A DNA stretch of 64,000 nucleotides from Pseudomonadota bacterium (GTDB taxonomy: Bacteria > Pseudomonadota > Gammaproteobacteria > Burkholderiales > Gallionellaceae). Shown here piece by piece: positions 557-10,258 of this stretch (position 1 is the stretch's first letter; each line of letters opens with the position of its first letter). The notes beneath the pieces are model-generated. The model was not told the origin of the DNA. It saw only the letters and a list, made by a program, of their open reading frames with translations, and searched no databases. Both the position numbers and the translations under genes were made by a program. The stretch is from positions 76,254 to 140,253 of the forward strand of contig JAZJXX010000019.1 in the NCBI GenBank assembly GCA_040390665.1. The letters are read 5' to 3'.

Positions 557-686
557 TTTTACATATATGCCCACTTTGCCCGGAGAGTTAGTGCCCTCAA
601 TTGGCGAGTCTTACTTGCTAAACCACCGCCGATAACCTAAACCGCAATCAGCTCGCTTTTTGGCTTTGGGTGATTCCCGCCGTACA
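557..686. repeat. Copy A of ~130-bp imperfect direct repeat (relic of repressor 3' end plus downstream DNA)
   Basis: Aligns by eye with 1811-1942 (shared ccctcaattgg, ctaaaccaccgccgat, accgcaatcagctcgc, tttttggctttggg); retains codons for V.RE.PKAKK with a frameshift. Confidence 0.9.
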
Positions 687-742
687 CATATGAGATGAAC
701 GGCGGCCCGAAAGGCGCGAAGCGGTCTTTGGAACGTCCGCCC
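684..742 (-). repeat. Possible truncated attC remnant
   Basis: Minus strand gggcggacgttccaaagaccgcttcgcgcctttcgggccgccgttcatctcatatgt: attC-like hairpin interior directly after the attC1 R' site, but both boxes are damaged. Confidence 0.3.
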
Positions 743-808
743 GCATAACGTGGCGTTGAGGCGCCTGCGCGGCTTTTCGCGCAGGTTCTTCGAACGCAGG
801 GTTTATGC
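743..808 (-). repeat. Integron attC site (attC1)
   Basis: Minus strand GCATAAAC-CCTGC-GTTCGAAG-aaCCTGCGCGaaaagcCGCGCAGGcg-CCTCAAC-GCCAC-GTTATGC; R'' overlaps the stop codon of the 803-1303 gene and carries one extra A. Confidence 0.85.
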
Positions 809-1303
809 ATCTGAGCGGACATTAGCGTTGTAGACCTTGGCGTTGATGCCATCAAGGTGACCAACAGTTTTCGCGAACGGGCGCACCCTGCAGTTGAATT
901 CGATATTTCCATCCAGCGCGACGGGATTGTCTTTATAGAGTCTAGCCATTTGGTTGGCATGACCATCCGGGATGGTTCCGCTAATGTAGAACGTGGTGAG
1001 TTCGCCAGAAGAAATGGTCTGCTTTTTCAAGATTAAGGCATCTAGAGTGCCACCACCAAACCAGAACCGAAAGCTCGCGCGATCCAATTCGACGGAGAAC
1101 GGCGAGAGGTTGATGACTTGGAGGTACAGATTGAAATATGCCGTTTGCCCAAGATGGACTTCGGCTGAGTCATGGCGAGGCCGAACGTCGACGTAAATTA
1201 ACTGAGCCAGTCTTTCTTGCGTGAAGTACCGCTTAAGAAGAAAGCCAGGCAGCCGGCGCAACAAGAGCCAGACGCCTTGAATTGGGATGGTCTCAATTAC
1301 CAT
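803..1303 (-). CDS. Hypothetical protein (166 aa), integron cassette gene
   Basis: ORF fills the space between attC2 R' and attC1 R''; beta-rich sequence with no family I recognise. Confidence 0.85.
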   Translation of the reverse strand: MVIETIPIQGVWLLLRRLPGFLLKRYFTQERLAQLIYVDVRPRHDSAEVHLGQTAYFNLYLQVINLSPFSVELDRASFRFWFGGGTLDALILKKQTISSGELTTFYISGTIPDGHANQMARLYKDNPVALDGNIEFNCRVRPFAKTVGHLDGINAKVYNANVRSDA

Positions 1304-1322
1304 TTGCGGTCACCAAAAAGAT

Positions 1323-1385
1323 GCATAACGTGGAGCTAAGGGCTGCGCCGCTTTTGCGCAGTCCGGCTTGAGCGTAGGGTTAGGC
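1323..1385 (-). repeat. Integron attC site (attC2)
   Basis: Minus strand GCCTAAC-CCTAC-GCTCAAGC-cggactgcgcaaaagcggcgcagc-CCTTAGC-TCCAC-GTTATGC: canonical R''/L''/L'/R' boxes, spacers and two extrahelical bases. Confidence 0.92.
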
Positions 1386-1439
1386 TCATTGAACGCCATG
1401 CGCCAACACTCAAGCTTTAGCAGTGCAATAAACGGGCAG

Positions 1440-1700
1440 TCACTCTTTGCTTTCCAACGCGTCTGCAATTCGAGACAGAATGTCACCGAAGCCGCCCATT
1501 TGTTCGTCATGATAGTCACCAGCCAAAGACAAAATTGAGTTTTTGCGCTCCATTTCTAGCACGCGTTTTGCCTCGATTACAGATTCGATAGTTATTGAGT
1601 GTTTTTTTGCCATTTTTGCAGCCTCTGCAAGAAATGCATCGAGATAATCGTGTTGAACGGAGTAGGAATCTCTTGTAGGTTGACTTCCTAGTACAGCCAT
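1440..1700 (-). CDS. Hypothetical protein (86 aa, acidic/helical), possibly a cassette gene
   Basis: GGAG SD before ATG 1700 (MAVLGSQPTRDSY...); the track's upstream extension to 1853 is unlikely; stop lies 55 nt before attC2. Confidence 0.75.
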   Translation of the reverse strand: MAVLGSQPTRDSYSVQHDYLDAFLAEAAKMAKKHSITIESVIEAKRVLEMERKNSILSLAGDYHDEQMGGFGDILSRIADALESKE

Positions 1701-1810
1701 ATTAATTACTCCTAAGCGTGAAATTGATGAGACCAAAGTAAAATAGATGGCAAAACCTCCTGATATTCTGGAATGGTTCGCCGCATATTCCGTTGTATTT
1801 CTAATTATTG

Positions 1811-1942
1811 TTTCACATCGATGCCTACTTGCCCGAGAGTCTAGCGCCCTCAATTGGTGAGTCTTTACTTTCTAAACCACCGCCGATAAACCTTAACCGC
1901 AATCAGCTCGCCTTTTTGGCTTTGGGCAATTCCCGCTGTACA
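1811..1942. repeat. Copy B of ~130-bp imperfect direct repeat
   Basis: Covers the last ~13 codons of the intact repressor and ~90 nt downstream of it. Confidence 0.9.
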
Positions 1943-2175
1943 TCTTCTACTTCTGGATGTTTTTGTTTGACCACTTCGTCGCTTAACAGATAAGCCGCGT
2001 ATTCAGGCCACGCCTGCGCAATGGCGATGAGGATGCCCGCTTTCGGTTCTCTATTTCCTTGCTCTATTCCTATTAGCGTACCTTTGGGGATTCCGGTTTT
2101 ATCGACGAACTCCTGCCTGCCCATCCCCAGGGCTTCGCGCACATTTCTTATTTTTTCACCAATAGGGGTTGACAT
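1903..2175 (-). CDS. XRE-family HTH phage repressor (Pf4r/RstR-like position)
   Basis: GEKIRNVREALGMGRQEFVDKTGIPKGTLIGIEQG HTH; divergent from the phage late genes. Confidence 0.9.
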   Translation of the reverse strand: MSTPIGEKIRNVREALGMGRQEFVDKTGIPKGTLIGIEQGNREPKAGILIAIAQAWPEYAAYLLSDEVVKQKHPEVEDVQRELPKAKKAS

Positions 2176-2263: not shown

Positions 2264-2494
2264 ATGAACGCCACATCCGAACCCGGTCAATTCACCCCTG
2301 AGCTGCTCGCTCAATCCCTTGCACTCCCTCTAATCGCACGCGAACGTTTCGCAGAACTCTGTGGCGTCTCCGACGGCGTCGTCCAAGGCTGGATTGCACG
2401 CGGTTATTTACCCGTCTATGAAATCGGCAAATACCGCTTGGTCAACCTGACCCTGCTGCATCAAATGGCCTTGAACAAGGCACCGTGGCTATGA
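2264..2494 (+). CDS. Excisionase/activator-like DNA-binding protein (XisF4-like)
   Basis: AGGAG SD; RERFAELCGV...VQGWIARGYLP..EIGKYRLVNL motif; sits opposite the repressor as in Pf phages. Confidence 0.8.
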   Translation: MNATSEPGQFTPELLAQSLALPLIARERFAELCGVSDGVVQGWIARGYLPVYEIGKYRLVNLTLLHQMALNKAPWL

Positions 2495-2715
2495 ACACCC
2501 CTCAGCCACCCGCCAAAGTACATCTCTCCATCGGCCACGACCGCTCCCTGTGCGGCCTCGCCCCGAAGAACGGCCCGTACCGCATCGTCTCACAATACAA
2601 CCTTTTCACCGCATCCGAAACCAATCAATGCGGTAAATGCATCGAAGCCCTCAAACGTCGCGGCTACACCCTCCCGCAGAAGCCCTCTGCAGCCCGTCAC
2701 CAACCCGCACGCTAA
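2491..2715 (+). CDS. Phage hypothetical protein, possible Zn-binding
   Basis: ATGA overlap with the previous gene; H..CG and CxxC residues. Confidence 0.65.
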   Translation: MNTPQPPAKVHLSIGHDRSLCGLAPKNGPYRIVSQYNLFTASETNQCGKCIEALKRRGYTLPQKPSAARHQPAR

Positions 2716-2854
2716 AGAGGCCCAATCATGCAAATTTACACCGCCCTGCGGAAGGGCAAAAAAAGTCGGGCGGAGGTAGTAGCACCGCCCGAAGGTCCCA
2801 TCTACGGGAATTTCACCGTCTGAACGGCCCCCTTCAAACCAGAGATTCCCGACC

Positions 2855-3085
2855 ATGACAAAACGGCCCGAATTTACCCACAAACCCGCTTCAGAAAAAC
2901 TCATTCTGTTGCGTAACGACCTCGACCAAACCGCCGACCGGCTGCAAACCCTGCGCGACCACCTCGCCTTGTGTACCGAAGACCCGATCCTCCAATCCGA
3001 TCCGCTGACTGCTGCCATCAAGTCCGCTGACACAGCGCAAAGCGCTATCGAAGAAACCCGCCTGCATCTGGCTGGAATACGGTAA
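2855..3085 (+). CDS. Phage hypothetical coiled-coil protein
   Basis: 76-aa ORF; TAATG overlap with rep. Confidence 0.6.
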   Translation: MTKRPEFTHKPASEKLILLRNDLDQTADRLQTLRDHLALCTEDPILQSDPLTAAIKSADTAQSAIEETRLHLAGIR

Positions 3086-4335
3086 TGGGCATCGACACCG
3101 TGAAACTTCGTTCCCCCTCACTAGATGCCGAACTTGCCGACAGGTTGGAGCGCCTCTCCATCCTCAAGCAAGGTATCGATCTTTTCTCCGGCGAAGAACT
3201 CTGGAACATCACCACCGGCGAACTGGACGGCAGCTATGACAGCCGCATCAGCTTTCGCGTCATGCGCGAAGACTTCGTCTGCGACAAAAACGGCACACCC
3301 CATCTGCAACCGTGCGACCCGTACATCACTGTCGAAGCCTCCTGGCCCAAAGTCTTCCACGGTCAGAACGTCTACGGCACCATAGACCACTTTCAGGACT
3401 CGGCCGAATGGTTCGTTGAAGTCCTGCAAAGCCTGTTCGGTCTGGCCGACGACGAACTGCCCTACGCCAAACACTGGGAAGTGCGCCGCATCGACTGGGC
3501 GGAAATGTTCGACCTGCCGCAGGCGGCTATCGGCGACTTCTTCCGCTGCTTCTCCGCCTGCAAATTCCCGCGCCGGGGCAAAAAAACCGCCAAGCATGGT
3601 GATCACTCCATGCACTTTCCCGGATCCACAACCACCTTGCGCCTCTATCACAAAGGCCCTGAATTCAAAGAACACGACCAAGCCAGAATCAAGCAATCCT
3701 TCGTCAAATACTTCCGCGAACGCTTCGAGCTCATGCCCATTGATGAAATCTACAAACTCACCAACCGCAAAGTAAAAGCCTTGCAACGACTCGCCGACCG
3801 CCGCCTGCGCTGTGAAGTCCAGATCAACGCCAGAAAACTTCAGGACGACTTCGCCGCGCAACTCATCGCCGAAGGCAAAGACCGCAAATACCCCAAGGTC
3901 TCCGAAATCACCGACGAGTACCTCATCAACATCTACCAGACCGAAATGCAAAAACTCCTCAAGGAAGGGAAATCCGACATGGACACCGTACGCAACCACG
4001 ACGCCGTAAGAAACCGCCTGATCAGCCTATACGGCAAACGCACCGCTCAACTCCTCATGGCCTTCTGGATGAATCTGGCCGCGCAGGGCGAAGACATCGC
4101 CAAAGACATGTACTCAAAATCGCGCTACTACGCCAACCGAAAAAAACTTATGGACGCCGGAGTTTCCTGGCATGCCTCCAACATCTACATCCTGCCGCCG
4201 CAATCGCTCCTGCCGGTGGACTTCCAACCCTTGCGCAACTCAGCGCGCATTTGCCAATTTCCGATCAGGCCCAGCTCGCTGCTCAACCTGTGCCCAACGG
4301 AATACCAGCAAGCCGTCACCCGTAGGGCGGCTTAA
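3085..4335 (+). CDS. Rolling-circle replication initiator, phage/plasmid gene II/X family
   Basis: N-terminal GIDTVKLRSP, plus RRIDWA and LYHKGPEF motifs typical of the family; position before SSB. Confidence 0.9.
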   Translation: MGIDTVKLRSPSLDAELADRLERLSILKQGIDLFSGEELWNITTGELDGSYDSRISFRVMREDFVCDKNGTPHLQPCDPYITVEASWPKVFHGQNVYGTIDHFQDSAEWFVEVLQSLFGLADDELPYAKHWEVRRIDWAEMFDLPQAAIGDFFRCFSACKFPRRGKKTAKHGDHSMHFPGSTTTLRLYHKGPEFKEHDQARIKQSFVKYFRERFELMPIDEIYKLTNRKVKALQRLADRRLRCEVQINARKLQDDFAAQLIAEGKDRKYPKVSEITDEYLINIYQTEMQKLLKEGKSDMDTVRNHDAVRNRLISLYGKRTAQLLMAFWMNLAAQGEDIAKDMYSKSRYYANRKKLMDAGVSWHASNIYILPPQSLLPVDFQPLRNSARICQFPIRPSSLLNLCPTEYQQAVTRRAA

Positions 4336-4364
4336 CCCACCACCAACCTTTGAAAGGAACCGTC

Positions 4365-4718
4365 ATGAACCAACCGCAAACCCAAGCCCCCGCAGTTACC
4401 CCAATGCCAGCTAAATCCCACACGCTGGCGTTAGCGCAAACCTATTTGCAGGGCCGCATCGTCTATATCCGCACCAAAAAAACCGACAACGGCCGCTTGT
4501 TCTTAACCATCCTCAAAATACCCGCTGTCGACCAATTCAGCCATCCGGCCACCGTAGAAGTTTCCAGCAACGAGAAACTCGGCGAGATCAACGACGACTG
4601 GAAAGGCGTCTGCCAGATTACCGGCTATCCACGAACCTACGACGGCAAACCAGATCCTGAAACAGGGGAAATACGAACCATGCGCACAGCGACCATCTCC
4701 CTGCGCGTGGTCGAATAA
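4365..4718 (+). CDS. Single-stranded DNA-binding protein (pV equivalent)
   Basis: AAGGA SD; beta-rich OB-fold-like 117 aa between rep and coat; GEIR near the C-terminus. Confidence 0.75.
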   Translation: MNQPQTQAPAVTPMPAKSHTLALAQTYLQGRIVYIRTKKTDNGRLFLTILKIPAVDQFSHPATVEVSSNEKLGEINDDWKGVCQITGYPRTYDGKPDPETGEIRTMRTATISLRVVE

Positions 4719-4793
4719 ATTTTTCAGCTTACTGGATTGGGGACACTTCCCCGAGGCGACCGGGCGCTACCCGGAAATCGAAAGGAGAAAGTC

Positions 4794-4985
4794 ATGAAAC
4801 GCAATACAAAACGCGCACTGGCAGCACTGGGCACCGCACTACCTACACTGTCGTTCGCCGATGTACCGACGAACGTCAGCACGGCCATAACCAGTGCCGG
4901 AACTGATGCAGCCGCAGCAGCCGGATTGGTGTTGGTGGCCATTGTCGGCATCTTCGCCGTGAAGTTGATCCGCAAGGGTCTGTAA
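4794..4985 (+). CDS. Major coat protein (pVIII)
   Basis: AGGAG SD; signal peptide ending SFA, Ala-rich amphipathic helix, TM helix and basic tail KLIRKGL. Confidence 0.9.
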   Translation: MKRNTKRALAALGTALPTLSFADVPTNVSTAITSAGTDAAAAAGLVLVAIVGIFAVKLIRKGL

Positions 4986-4986
4986 T

Positions 4987-5334
4987 ATGGGCGGCTATTC
5001 GGTGAACGGTATCTGCTACGCCTCGACGCAAGAGGCGGTGGACGCTTATTACTCGAATAGCCATCCTCAAATAATCCAGACGCCAACCGCCGTTTTCAAA
5101 GTCCAGTACCTGCAAACTGCGGGCGCTTGGCAAAGTGTTCAGGAGACAGTGTCCGGGAGCGGCGAAACCACCGCCGTGACCGTCGCGCCCGCTCCGGTCA
5201 ATGTGTATGGAGCATGTTCGCTGCCCAACTCCAGCTATGAGAATTTTTCAGACGGCCAGACGCTCGGCTGGGGCGTCGCCTCGGCGCTCACCGCCACGTT
5301 TGCAATCATGCTGCTCAGAAAGGTCTTCCCATGA
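4987..5334 (+). CDS. Inovirus virion-associated protein with C-terminal TM
   Basis: GYSVNGICY N-terminus; GWGVA..L...FAIMLLRK membrane tail. Confidence 0.75.
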   Translation: MGGYSVNGICYASTQEAVDAYYSNSHPQIIQTPTAVFKVQYLQTAGAWQSVQETVSGSGETTAVTVAPAPVNVYGACSLPNSSYENFSDGQTLGWGVASALTATFAIMLLRKVFP

Positions 5335-5405
5335 ATATCACGGATGTTTATACCCTTGCCGGGTTTCTGATCATCGTCCTGCCTTTCTGGATGATGATGA
5401 AATGA
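5331..5405 (+). CDS. 24-aa hydrophobic minor coat protein (pVII/pIX-like)
   Basis: MNITDVYTLAGFLIIVLPFWMMMK; ATGA overlaps on both sides; below the ORF-track cutoff. Confidence 0.65.
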   Translation: MNITDVYTLAGFLIIVLPFWMMMK

Positions 5406-6736
5406 AGATCATCATTGCCCGCCTGATGCTCCCGCTCTTTACCCTATTTACAATTATGACCCCGTACAGAGTAGTGCAAGCGGTAGTCATTCCGTTTCCT
5501 GCTGTGCCGCTCGCGGTCGAAGCGGTTACCCAAGCGGGTGCCGTTGTAGCGATGTCTAACCCGCTGGCGCTGGGGACCGTATTGGCACTGGGCGTCATCG
5601 CCTATTTCGTGCTGCGCGATAGTTCCAAATCTTCCGACCTGGCTAAAATTCCTGCGGGTAAGGCCGCAGGCAACGCGATAGCTGCTCCGACTGCGCCCGG
5701 CTCAACAAGTCAAATTCCTGGCGCACGTAAATGGTTTGTGAACACCGGCTGTTTGGGTGGCGTAACCCACACCGGTTTTTCGACCGGAGCCGCCGCATTC
5801 ACAGACTATGTCCAAACGATCAATACAGTCTCGGCATGTACCGGGAATGGCGCTTATAAATATTCAGTTTGCGATGCTGAGCAATCGACCGTGACGTATT
5901 CATATAATGGCGGACCTCAAGTTGCCTGCCATTCCCCCACGGGCGTTTTCTTTAGTCAGGAACCGACGACGTGCCCGAGCGGATATGCCATGAGCGGCAA
6001 TTCCTGCACGCTTACCAATGCCTATCAAGCCAACCCTAATGCTTCAGTAGACTTCAACCGCTCGGGTGAAACCTTCGGACAGCCCGCCGGAGCCCCCACT
6101 AAAAAGGGCGGTATAGCACCGCTGACCACTACTACAAGTACATCGAACGACACTATTTACCAGTCCGGCAAGGACGCCAACGGCAATCCGATGGCTGTCA
6201 GCCTGCAGGCTACCGCTGCCGGTACTACGCTAAATGTGCAAACCCAAAAAACCGACGCCAACGGAAACAGCTATGTTTCGAACAATGCCTATAATTTCGA
6301 TCCGGCTGGCGTACCCTTGGGGACGACCCAGAATGCTACTCAGCAAACCTTGGCCCTTGATCCCAATACAGGCCAGTTGCAGGCAGCTCCCGCGCCAGCC
6401 AACACCGCTTCACCGGCAACCTCGCAATCACCGGCGCCTGCCGCATCGCCTACTGACTGCCAGCTTTTTCCTGACGCCTCCGGCTGCCAGCCTCTGGGCG
6501 ACATTCCCGATAATGAATTGCAGCAAAAAAACATTCCCATCTCCATTACCCCGGTCTCGATAGGCGGCGCGGGTGTATGTCCGCAACCAAGGATATTCCA
6601 TGCCGGGGGTCACAATTACACCTTGAGCTATCAGATGATCTGCGATTTCGCATCAGGTGTCCGCCCTGTAATCCTCGCGCTGGCGTGGCTGTTTGCCGGC
6701 ATGACCTTAATCGGAGGAATGCGCTCAAATGGCTAG
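5402..6736 (+). CDS. Adsorption protein pIII-like with TspB-like C-terminus
   Basis: Signal-like N-terminus, Cys-rich Thr/Gly domains, Pro/Ala linker, CP.P...ICDFA..VRPVILALAW anchor. Confidence 0.85.
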   Translation: MKIIIARLMLPLFTLFTIMTPYRVVQAVVIPFPAVPLAVEAVTQAGAVVAMSNPLALGTVLALGVIAYFVLRDSSKSSDLAKIPAGKAAGNAIAAPTAPGSTSQIPGARKWFVNTGCLGGVTHTGFSTGAAAFTDYVQTINTVSACTGNGAYKYSVCDAEQSTVTYSYNGGPQVACHSPTGVFFSQEPTTCPSGYAMSGNSCTLTNAYQANPNASVDFNRSGETFGQPAGAPTKKGGIAPLTTTTSTSNDTIYQSGKDANGNPMAVSLQATAAGTTLNVQTQKTDANGNSYVSNNAYNFDPAGVPLGTTQNATQQTLALDPNTGQLQAAPAPANTASPATSQSPAPAASPTDCQLFPDASGCQPLGDIPDNELQQKNIPISITPVSIGGAGVCPQPRIFHAGGHNYTLSYQMICDFASGVRPVILALAWLFAGMTLIGGMRSNG

Positions 6737-7004
6737 CATTGGCAGCTTTCTGGCAATGATCGCCGCGCCGGTCGCGAAGCGCGTTCTTACCGGATTGGGG
6801 GTAGGTGTCATCACTTACGCGGGTCTCGATTCCGCGCTGGGTGTTATACAAAACGCAGTCATCAACAACCTCGGCGGAATGAGCGGGGACCTAGCCAACT
6901 TCTTTGCTTTGGCCGGGGGCAATCAGGTAATCGGCATTACATTAGGGGCATTGGCTGCGCGGGTGACCATGGCCACGCTTACCAGATTGGGGAGACTGAA
7001 TTGA
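6729..7004 (+). CDS. DUF2523-like minor coat protein (pVI)
   Basis: Hydrophobic 91 aa, LGVGVITYAG motif, between pIII and zot. Confidence 0.85.
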   Translation: MASIGSFLAMIAAPVAKRVLTGLGVGVITYAGLDSALGVIQNAVINNLGGMSGDLANFFALAGGNQVIGITLGALAARVTMATLTRLGRLN

Positions 7005-8044
7005 TCACCGTGATCACCGGAGTTCCCGGCACAGGCAAGAGCGCCCTGATCGTCTCGATGCTTCTCCAGATCGCCAAAACCGGCAGAAAAATCTACGTCG
7101 ATAACATCCCGGAGCTGGCTATCGATCATGAACCGGCTGGGGATATCCTGAAGTGGCCGGATTGGGCGGAGGAGGGTGCGCTAATCGTGATCGACGAGTG
7201 CCAGCGTCATTTCCGCCCGCGTCATTCCAGCGCGGCGGTTCCGCGCCATGTTGCCGAGCTGGAAACGCACCGTCATCGCGGTTTGGATTTCTGGCTGATC
7301 ACACAGCGCCCGGCCTTGATCGAATCAAACATACGCGGCCTGTGTGGCCGCCATATTGCCATACGCAATACCTTCTTCGGTCGCTATACCTATGAGTGGC
7401 CGGAAATGGGCGATGTCGAGAGCGAAACATCGCGTGCGATAGCGGCCAAGGCGCGCTACAAACTGCCCAGGCATGTTTTTTCCTTATATAAAAGCGCGTC
7501 GGTTCATACTAAAACATCGGCCAAGATGCCGACCCCGGCCAAAATTGCCTTGGGATGCCTGGCGTTTTCAATAATCGGCGGTACCTACTTCTATCAACAA
7601 TATGCCGCTCGATTCAGCCATGACAAAAATGCCGTTACAGCGCAGCTTGGTAACGGTGTAGTTCCATCGGTAGCAGTGGTTCCCGCAGCACAGCCAGCAG
7701 GATCGGGGACAGGAGTATTGGGTGAGTCGGTACAGGATTACTTGCCCGCGATCCCGAACCAGCCGGAAACAGCGCCACTATATCGCGCCGTGCGCCAAGT
7801 GGTTGCAATGCCTTGGCCATCAGCCTGTGTCGCTTCTGAAACCCGGTGTCTATGCTATACCTCGCAGGGCACCAGACTGGGCAATATTGATCAGGATGCT
7901 TGCCTGAAGATCGTCACCAATGGCCCACAGTTCAATCCCTACAGGGCGGTAACTGGGGAGCGGGAGGCGCAGCCGACGCACCCAGTATCCGCCGTAGTGG
8001 CGTCAGCATCGGCACCTTCGCCCCCGCTTTTTACTTTCCAGTAA
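7001..8044 (+). CDS. zot: Zot/pI morphogenesis ATPase
   Basis: ITGVPGTGKS Walker A, IVIDECQ Walker B, HRHRG.D..LITQ, TM segment. Confidence 0.95.
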   Translation: MITVITGVPGTGKSALIVSMLLQIAKTGRKIYVDNIPELAIDHEPAGDILKWPDWAEEGALIVIDECQRHFRPRHSSAAVPRHVAELETHRHRGLDFWLITQRPALIESNIRGLCGRHIAIRNTFFGRYTYEWPEMGDVESETSRAIAAKARYKLPRHVFSLYKSASVHTKTSAKMPTPAKIALGCLAFSIIGGTYFYQQYAARFSHDKNAVTAQLGNGVVPSVAVVPAAQPAGSGTGVLGESVQDYLPAIPNQPETAPLYRAVRQVVAMPWPSACVASETRCLCYTSQGTRLGNIDQDACLKIVTNGPQFNPYRAVTGEREAQPTHPVSAVVASASAPSPPLFTFQ

Positions 8045-8286: not shown

Positions 8287-9051
8287 TTACTTCCGTTTCT
8301 TGTACTCAAAATCCGCGCCACGCTCCTTCAATATGGCGATCACTTTTTCTTTCCAGGGTTGCATTTTTGTGTTATCCGGCATCGGCATATGAGAAATCTC
8401 CGTAGCCAATTTATCTAACCCGGCCGTCAGTCCATGCTCGAGACAGTAAGCGATAATATCAAATCGAATAAGTACTAGTGCTCTATTCGCCGCAGTGCCT
8501 TCATATTTATCCTGCCAGTTGATATCGAGCCCGTGCTGCAAAAGGATTTGAATATTTTCCATGCGGCCCTGCCGAGCTGCAGTGAAGGAAATTCTCGCCT
8601 CCCCTGTAACTATGTCCGGCGCAATCAAATTGGGATTGCCGTGATGTTTCAGTAGCAATTTTAAAATCTCGGGCTTGTCGCCGCCGGCAGCGGCATACAT
8701 GGGCGACACCTGACGTTTGGGTGCCACATAGTTCGGGTCGGCGCCGGCTTTCAGCATGTATTCCAGACGTTGAACCTCCCAGCGCGTGCCGCCCATGATC
8801 CACAGCAAGGGAGTGATTTCCTCTTCACCGTTCATATTGACCTGTGCACCTTGTGCCAACAGGCGATCGGCTTTGGCATAATCGTCGTGCTCGATGGCAG
8901 TAACCCACTCTGCTGTGGCTTTATCATGGAACGCCTGTAGCGCCGTCATCCCGCCTACCTGGGTTTCCGCACAAACTGTTGTTACCATCGTCATCCCCAC
9001 CGTTAATAGGGCAATTCGCCAGCATTTAATAACACACGCTATTTGAGGCAT
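8287..9051 (-). CDS. Secreted ankyrin-repeat protein (phage accessory gene)
   Basis: GGGGA SD, N-terminal signal-like segment, repeats ITPLLW..LKAGADPN, SPMYAAA..LLKHHGNPN, LLQHGLDIN. Confidence 0.88.
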   Translation of the reverse strand: MPQIACVIKCWRIALLTVGMTMVTTVCAETQVGGMTALQAFHDKATAEWVTAIEHDDYAKADRLLAQGAQVNMNGEEEITPLLWIMGGTRWEVQRLEYMLKAGADPNYVAPKRQVSPMYAAAGGDKPEILKLLLKHHGNPNLIAPDIVTGEARISFTAARQGRMENIQILLQHGLDINWQDKYEGTAANRALVLIRFDIIAYCLEHGLTAGLDKLATEISHMPMPDNTKMQPWKEKVIAILKERGADFEYKKRK

Positions 9052-9681: not shown

Positions 9682-9922
9682 ACTCCTGAGTTGCTCGCCC
9701 TGCGACATCCGCTCATAGCCGGAAAACAATGCAAGTGGTTGGTGCGGCCAGCGCGGAAGGCGGCTTTTTGCCTGAGCACTGCCACGGCCACTTGCAAGCA
9801 CGCAATCGAACAGGCGCGCCTGCGCGCTTCCACGCGCCGACAAAAAAGTGCGAAGCACAACCATCGTGCGTTTGTTTTTTGGCTATGAGAGGATTCGCGT
9901 CTAGGGCGGGTAGCTCAGGAGT
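9682..9922. other. Large structured intergenic element (candidate minus-strand origin or packaging signal)
   Basis: 9682-9729 pairs imperfectly with 9872-9922; inner stem TGCAAGTGG(9730-9738)/CCACTTGCA(9788-9796). Confidence 0.55.
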
Positions 9923-10210: not shown

Positions 10211-10258
10211 GGACTCATAATCCCTTGGTCGCTGGTTCGAGTCCAGCACGACCCACCA
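10211..10258 (+). repeat. att site: 3' half of tRNA-Ile2 (CAT anticodon)
   Basis: GGACTCATAATCCCTTGGTCGCTGGTTCGAGTCCAGCACGACCCACCA resembles the 3' half of ileX; no 5' acceptor/D arm upstream, so it is not an intact tRNA. Confidence 0.9.

Follow-up and report, generated by a model that had tools for sequence, protein, structure and literature searches.

The question raised by this locus is how integron cassettes came to lie beside the repressor of a filamentous prophage, and whether they belong to that phage or to the chromosome around it. The window, i.e. the whole stretch of 64,000 nt that was analysed, corresponds to C19:76254-140253 in a draft genome of 2.69 Mb (55% GC, 22 contigs). Positions given without a prefix are those of the window, and L011 coordinates equal the window coordinate plus 18253. 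A perfect 48-bp repeat of a tRNA-Met 3' end is present at both ends of the integrated element, which is thus defined as C19:67261-86511 (19.25 kb). The left copy, attL, is found at C19:67261-67308, which places it 8.9 kb to the left of where the window starts, while attR is found at 10211-10258 on the + strand as a perfect copy of the tRNA-Met(CAT) 3' end (blastn 48/48); no further copy was detected between them by blastn. The tRNA-Met gene itself lies at L011 9232-9308, just after rpoD and ~ 9 kb left of the window. A tyrosine integrase adjoins attL and shares 73% identity with that of a related inovirus element, L020. The element hence shows both the defined integration borders and the recombinase of an inovirus prophage, and the cassettes are located ~ 9.7 kb inward from its left border. 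The initial annotation had placed them within a filamentous prophage while considering that the true attL could lie between 1900 and the cassettes; given the position of attL at the tRNA-Met gene, 9 kb further left, the former is confirmed and the latter excluded. The cassettes are therefore part of the integrated filamentous-phage element and not of an adjoining chromosomal array.

The same arrangement is observed in other assemblies. Indeed, the independent assembly L047 is 99.89% identical over 16.4 kb with identical junctions, as is likewise the case for two Logan run assemblies (L048 and L049), and the gene order repressor, 86-aa gene, 166-aa gene and KwaA is common to L047 and both Logan assemblies. 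Since the junctions are identical in independent assemblies, a misassembly is excluded. A search for circular or attP-form contigs, using the 75-aa right-end protein and the integrase, returned only short or integrated contigs.

The phage genes follow to the right of the cassettes. The repressor (1903-2175, minus strand) is an XRE-type HTH protein of 90 aa (Pfam HTH_19/HTH_3, PHROG transcriptional regulator), and the inovirus core as a whole extends over 2264-8044 on the + strand. It comprises a Cox-like HTH/excisionase gene (2264-2494), the G2P replication initiator (3085-4335; Phage_CRI 49.5 bits, 86% identical to the L020 G2P), a single-stranded DNA-binding protein (4350-4718; PHROG SSB), the major coat (4794-4985; PHROG), an adsorption protein (5399-6736), the minor coat (6729-7004; PHROG) and Zot/pI (7001-8044; PF05707, 82.8 bits), all on the + strand. 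An independent annotation calls Phage_Coat_B and DUF2523. The element thus displays the features by which an inovirus is recognised, namely a Zot/pI ATPase together with a rolling-circle initiator, an SSB and short major and minor coat genes running in one direction. Furthermore, full-length open reading frames are present for the integrase, the Cox-like protein, G2P, SSB, the coat proteins and Zot. Between Zot and attR, a long hairpin of ~ 245 nt (9682-9922, + strand; inverted repeats I3 and I7) folds as DNA at -74.1 kcal/mol with a z of -6.3, a value reached in 0 of 200 shuffles; it may be a packaging signal or an origin region.

Two well-formed attC sites had been reported at 743-808 and 1323-1385, and both were found at exactly these positions, by hairpin folding as well as by a covariance model. 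On the + strand, attC1 (743-808) reads GCATAAC...GTTTATGC and attC2 (1323-1385) reads GCATAAC...GTTAGGC. Both sites consist of imperfect inverted repeats in the order R''-L''...L'-R' with the conserved AAC and GTT triplets, as expected of attC. In both, the + strand hairpin is formed by a 7-bp R box, an unpaired spacer, the L box and stem, and unpaired bases on the 3' side. Given that the cassette ORFs are on the minus strand, which is the cassette orientation of both sites, the + strand is the attC bottom strand. As DNA, the + strand folds at -19.7 kcal/mol for attC1 and -15.3 kcal/mol for attC2, the minus strand being worse for both. In attC1, the + strand adopts the full attC hairpin as its minimum-free-energy fold while the minus-strand fold is broken; for attC2, the full attC pairing comes from the alignment to the covariance model, in which the unpaired bases of both sites sit in the 3' half.

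This model, R1, was built from 13 length-matched attC sites of the chromosomal arrays on C13 and C5, with the window sites excluded; an alignment of 21 sites had given no usable inner-stem consensus. It is a home-built model and differs from IntegronFinder's own attc_4 model. Across the 13 array sites, 85% of cells are paired in the R1 structure versus 34-51% with slid partners, and compensatory changes are observed at 9 pairs. A simpler scan for the motif RYYYAAC...GTTRRRY followed by a fold test proved noisy and missed the window sites, and nhmmer and the covariance model were used instead. R1 matched attC2 with 65.1 bits (E 7e-15) and attC1 with 29.6 bits (E 3e-5 for window and loci, 3e-8 for a local search), in both cases on the + strand only. 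The check by covariance model that had been proposed is therefore passed by both sites, with the home-built model in place of IntegronFinder's. A possible third attC remnant had also been suggested, but nothing else rose above noise anywhere in the 19-kb element with R1 and filters off. Comparison of the region with Rfam, using gathering or E<=1 thresholds, gave no family and no attC-type match. The R'' box of attC1, GCATAAAC, contains one extra base, since the homologous Azospira site has GCATAAC as its R''.

Whole-genome BLAST and nhmmer searches showed that attC2 belongs to a genomic repeat family with ~ 22 copies on C13 (25.6-39.7 kb), 6-7 on C5 and one on C15. The copies on C13 and C5 form chromosomal cassette arrays, and the array site at C13:30663-30720 shares 95% identity with attC2. 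Moreover, members of the family are found in numerous genomes across the genus, some of them matching attC1 in part. Both sites are thus genuine members of the attC family of the genus. In IntegronFinder terms, a cluster of attC sites without an integrase is a CALIN, and an integrase without cassettes is an In0; with two attC sites 580 nt apart and no intI nearby, the locus corresponds to a CALIN.

The cassettes delimited by these sites were next considered individually. Cassette B (749-1328, minus strand) is complete, with 580 bp and an ORF of 166 aa at 803-1303, which upholds the earlier description of this gene as a complete cassette. It starts with TTATGC, and this start matches its own R'' (GCATAAAC) rather than the GCCTAAC of the upstream site, attC2, as had been noted initially. 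The 166-aa protein has 105 homologues and falls into no family of Pfam, NCBIfam or PADLOC. An attC overlaps the stop codon of the homologous genes in Azospira and Methylomonas (52.1 and 26.1 bits with R1), and a Gallionella homologue has a weak site at the same place (14.5 bits, E 0.35 with R1). The AF2 model of the protein (pLDDT 87) shows short N-terminal helices and an LEA-2/ApaG-like beta sandwich; a fold search for a function returned only this generic sandwich, which points to none.

Cassette A (1329-1747, minus strand, 5' limit approximate) carries the 86-aa ORF at 1440-1700. A homologue of this protein, 88% identical, is found in the metagenome contig L030 as the first of three cassettes, in an array whose attC sites score 44.3, 65.6 and 35.3 bits with R1. 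The DNA homology to the L030 cassette spans ~ 1747 to 1323 and runs unbroken through TTAGGAG, where L030 carries CTAAGGAG. TTAGGAG had been taken for a cassette start; given that the homology crosses it, and that the preceding base is C, it represents a ribosome-binding site instead of a cassette boundary. The proposal of the 86-aa gene as a second cassette hence stands by virtue of its homologue in a three-cassette array, while the boundary on which it was based does not. Neither an attC nor an attI-like sequence was found upstream of cassette A, where nothing resembles the host attI region either. Both genes of the window are true cassette genes. No copy of either cassette was found in the host's own arrays, and PADLOC assigned neither of the two proteins to a known defence family.

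In order to see how the cassettes are joined to the phage, the two ends of the block were compared with the surrounding sequence. The segment at 551-687 (137 nt, minus strand) is 86% identical, with 6 indels, to the segment at 1805-1943 on the same strand. The latter contains the 3' end of the real repressor and a conserved stretch of 85 nt downstream, with the cargo starting at its left edge. The former contains the frameshifted last 13 codons of a second, related repressor, giving VRRESPKAKK in frame versus VQRELPKAKK in the real one, followed by the same 85 nt downstream. The 85 nt showed no significant RNA fold and no match in viral or metagenome collections. On the right of the remnant, the block begins with a truncated third cassette (688-748, minus strand), which consists of the first 61 nt only, with TTATGC right after the crossover G of attC1. 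This cassette ends at 687/688, where it is joined to the repressor remnant, and no homology of 688-748 to either repressor copy was found. At the other end, 57 unique nt follow beyond the limit of the cassette A homology (~ 1747), and no G|TT junction is present at this 5' end of the block. Thus, the array fragment consists of two complete cassettes and the first 61 nt of a third; neither of its ends is a junction of the integron-integrase type, and it lies between the att sites of the element with phage repressor sequence on both flanks.

The slot between integrase and repressor is otherwise filled with defence genes. The Kiwa genes lie leftward of the repressor remnant, and kwaA is the last gene of a 9.7-kb cargo region reaching left to the integrase. 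The 5' two-thirds of kwaA fall at 1-411 of the window (minus strand), the whole 195-aa ORF running leftward out of it (L011:18077-18664) and scoring 238 bits with PADLOC and 217 bits with NCBIfam. KwaB is present as well; it is split in this assembly, and an independent assembly of this population has it in one piece. The slot also holds a retron Ec67-type RT-Toprim gene (725 bits), umuD and umuC, and RmrT/RmrA (RosmerTA). The cassettes thus sit in a typical prophage defence-cargo hotspot.

As stated in the initial annotation, no intI is present in the window, and the whole genome contains just two short fragments of this gene: one corresponding to the N-terminal ~ 50 residues (1-51) beside the C13 array, the other to residues 229-315 (87 residues) on C5. 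No gene of the genome exceeds the TIGR02249 cut-off, the best whole-gene matches being XerC/XerD, and the tyrosine recombinase nearest to the cassettes is the phage integrase, with 40 bits for the same family. The combination of intI, adjacent attI and promoter that makes a complete integron was not found at the locus. Given that the host has no intact intI, nothing in this cell would be able to move cassettes. Across the genus, an intI above the family cut-off is found in 20 of 35 genomes, mostly without stops, so that hosts predicted to be capable of acting on the attC sites of the window exist nearby.

Turning to related phages, the only close relative comes from a groundwater Nitrosomonadales MAG. 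This element, L020, is a compact inovirus of 9.4 kb bordered by a 46-bp repeat of a tRNA-Phe 3' end, with the order tRNA, integrase, one 280-aa gene, repressor and core. A comparison of the same slot in related prophages had been proposed as a measure of cassette turnover; no attC was detected by R1 in nine related-phage loci (G2P identity from 86% to about 50%), and no Zot gene or Zot phage was found elsewhere among the 35 genomes of the genus. The IMG/VR contigs with the same attC type that were examined are tailed-phage fragments with arrays at contig ends, and not inoviruses. On present evidence, the capture of cassettes would appear to have been a single event and not a regular phage strategy.

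Together, we consider it probable that the block is a fragment of an integron array, i.e. a CALIN, situated in the cargo slot of a 19.25-kb inovirus prophage that carries its own integrase at tRNA-Met, and that it entered by a route other than IntI. The simplest history that we infer from the junctions would comprise three steps. The array fragment would have entered the phage genome through ordinary recombination with an array, either illegitimate or homologous. It would then have been part of the cargo of one phage at a time when two related prophages lay in tandem, and a later deletion from the repressor of the first phage into the cargo of the second would have fused the block to the remnant of the second repressor. 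If the phage excises by means of the integrase and the Cox-like protein and is packaged, the cassettes would travel along. The size of the element (twice that of its relative), the rearrangement scar, the extra base of attC1, the recovery of integrated forms only and the lack of an intact host intI are observations that weigh against this explanation.

A different origin was proposed in the initial annotation, in which the slot actively recruits cassettes, IntI having inserted them as circles at a secondary site downstream of the repressor. Insertion at secondary sites by IntI is established (Recchia, Stokes and Hall 1994, as cited in PMC9892861), the integrase is widespread in the genus with 20 of 35 genomes above cut-off, and the TTATGC of cassette B, in agreement with its own R'' but not with the R'' of the upstream attC, is the signature of a boundary made by IntI. 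However, this signature is present in any array, hence it does not indicate where the insertion took place. Moreover, attI, attC and a G|TT junction are all lacking at the 5' end of the block, TTAGGAG being a ribosome-binding site preceded by C, and at the 3' end the repressor remnant adjoins a cassette of which only the first 61 nt are left. With the host intI reduced to fragments and attC in 0 of 9 related-phage loci as well, recruitment by the phage is not borne out, and we regard this origin as unlikely. Still far less credible is that the cassettes are a chromosomal array beside the prophage, or that the contig is chimeric. The same attC type does occur in the arrays on C13 and C5 and as a single site on C15, but attL is 9 kb further left at tRNA-Met, repressor sequence flanks the block on both sides, and the independent assembly and the two Logan run assemblies share the junctions; neither a second att copy near 1800-1900 nor discordant assemblies were found.

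A more serious competitor, which we nevertheless hold to be clearly the less probable, is that the element is a defunct composite island that produces no phage, in which case the cassettes would be a fossil without a role in transmission. The remnant of a second repressor testifies to a past deletion or fusion, the element measures 19 kb versus 9.4 kb in its relative, KwaB is split in this assembly, attC1 has its extra base, and only integrated forms were found among the contigs searched. On the other hand, the 48-bp att repeats are perfect, the genes for the integrase, Cox-like protein, G2P, SSB, coats and Zot are open and full length, and KwaB is intact in the independent assembly of the same population. 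As to size, filamentous capsids have no fixed length limit.

In the lysogen, the cassettes may be expressed from the phage. A simple motif scan detected a promoter-like site ahead of the repressor, at 2290-2261 on the minus strand, while the interval from 1903 to 1700 contained nothing resembling a terminator. It is thus plausible, from these motifs, that transcription from the repressor promoter reads through into the promoterless, co-oriented cassettes. The same orientation bears on packaging. In Ff phages, it is the strand with the same sense as the replication and coat genes that is packaged; by analogy, the virion strand would be the + strand of the window, which for both attC sites is the bottom strand. 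The cassettes being co-oriented with the repressor, the strand expected to be packaged is thus the recombinogenic attC strand. Given two possible orientations, with a prior of one half, this match is an implication of the arrangement and not evidence for it.

If the analogy holds, each infection might inject attC bottom strands as single-stranded DNA ready to fold, and filamentous phages might constitute a dedicated vehicle between cassette pools, a speculative proposal to which we give little credence at present. Were it true, a host with an active IntI could excise cassette B from the incoming strand and capture it at attI, or the whole phage circle could insert into attI, and the delivery of single-stranded DNA would be a natural counterpart of the conjugation assay for attC recombination. 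Little is understood of how cassettes move from one large sedentary integron to another in environmental bacteria, and phage-borne attC clusters are a proposed route. In this regard, the present case extends the known carriers of attC to a filamentous phage, and such a phage could move cassettes between bacteria.

Another filamentous phage offers an analogy for this proposal. In CTX-phi, a hairpin folded from the single-stranded (+) DNA is reportedly integrated by a host tyrosine recombinase, as Val et al. are said to have found in 2005. Hypothetically, IntI would find a comparable substrate in attC bottom strands carried on the packaged strand; unlike CTX-phi, however, the phage of the window integrates via its own integrase at a tRNA gene.

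The cargo slot itself resembles that of the Pf-like inoviruses, which likewise encode an integrase, are located at tRNA genes and carry variable cargo beside a conserved core (bioRxiv 10.1101/2024.05.03.592413). Their cargo includes retron, Kiwa and toxin-antitoxin systems (same source). In contrast, these phages measure 10-14 kb, carry 1-7 cargo genes and have no reported attC (10.1101/2024.05.03.592413), while the element described here is of 19 kb with four systems and the cassettes. The cassettes, for their part, are of the same small, promoterless and attC-bounded kind as those in the defence-cassette stores of sedentary chromosomal integrons (bioRxiv 10.1101/2024.07.02.601686 and 10.1101/2024.07.02.601719). 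Unlike in those arrays (10.1101/2024.07.02.601686; 10.1101/2024.07.02.601719), only two cassettes are present, without attI or intI, and in a phage.

The closest precedent is the survey by Qi, Rajabal, Ghaly, Tetu and Gillings (2023), in which phage genomes were found to contain 17 CALINs, three complete integrons and one In0 (PMC9892861). The same paper reports that phage-borne attC bottom strands recombine with attI1 and proposes a lateral route of cassette transfer (PMC9892861). Like its CALINs, which are found in temperate, virulent or cryptic phages, the locus has at least two attC sites and cassette-like ORFs and no integrase. The string 'inovir' is absent from its text, and its three mentions of 'filamentous' are unrelated to a cassette-bearing phage. 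A full-text literature search, one general review aside, found no report of an attC cluster in an inovirus. The initial annotation was not aware of any description of such an association; this has to be narrowed, given that attC clusters and whole integrons in tailed phages and prophages are published (PMC9892861), while it stands, as far as this search goes, for inoviruses. The carriers named in the available text of PMC9892861 are tailed phages or a phage-plasmid (P1), whereas the carrier here is filamentous, with a single-stranded DNA virion expected. In addition, unlike in the cases described there, the attC type of the window is that of the chromosomal arrays of the host genus. Hence, the phage-borne attC cluster is already known as a kind, and it is the inovirus carrier that is new.

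A single cargo slot of the inovirus prophage holds four recognised systems or modules. Within this cargo, a gene for a retron Ec67-type RT-Toprim protein, umuDC and a RosmerTA pair (RmrT/RmrA) occupy positions 10940-16976 of L011, the stretch of the contig that reaches left of the window (C19:68940-74976), and are adjoined by Kiwa, whose kwaB lies immediately left of the window (L011 17105-18080; C19:75105-76080). The present assembly breaks kwaB into two ORFs, of 154 and 200 aa, that overlap. In L047, which was assembled independently from the same population and is 99.89% identical to the present assembly across 16.4 kb, kwaB is one 320-aa gene. The split reflects either true polymorphism or an error in sequencing.

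At the other side of the element, between Zot and attR, a hairpin of ~245 nt is found at window 9682-9922, with a DNA fold of -74 kcal/mol and a z of -6.3, which could represent an inovirus packaging signal or origin region. The same interval contains a minus-strand gene for an ankyrin-repeat protein (window 8287-9051); its N-terminus is signal-like and its PADLOC matches, to candidate-system and Ankyrin models, are weak.

As for the 86-aa gene of cassette A, a homologue is present outside any cassette in two metagenome contigs (L026 2501-3762 and L027 1596-2857). Since a 310-aa DUF4238 gene directly follows the homologue in both contigs, the pair hints at a two-gene module.

In the host genome, two large chromosomal cassette arrays are observed, one of ~22 attC sites (C13:24984-39733) and one of ~7 (C5:96316-113243). 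All that is left of intI is two fragments, the N-terminal one next to the array on C13 and the C-terminal one on the far side of that on C5, suggesting a sedentary integron that has been broken and rearranged.

Arrays of the same attC type, scoring up to 83 bits, also occur on predicted viral contigs from IMG/VR (L058, L061, L063, L064, L066-L071, L079, L083 and L085). In those checked, the encoded proteins are of tailed-phage type (RecT/YqaJ, DnaB, tail protein) and the arrays lie at contig ends; such contigs are either prophages adjoining integrons or phage-borne CALINs.
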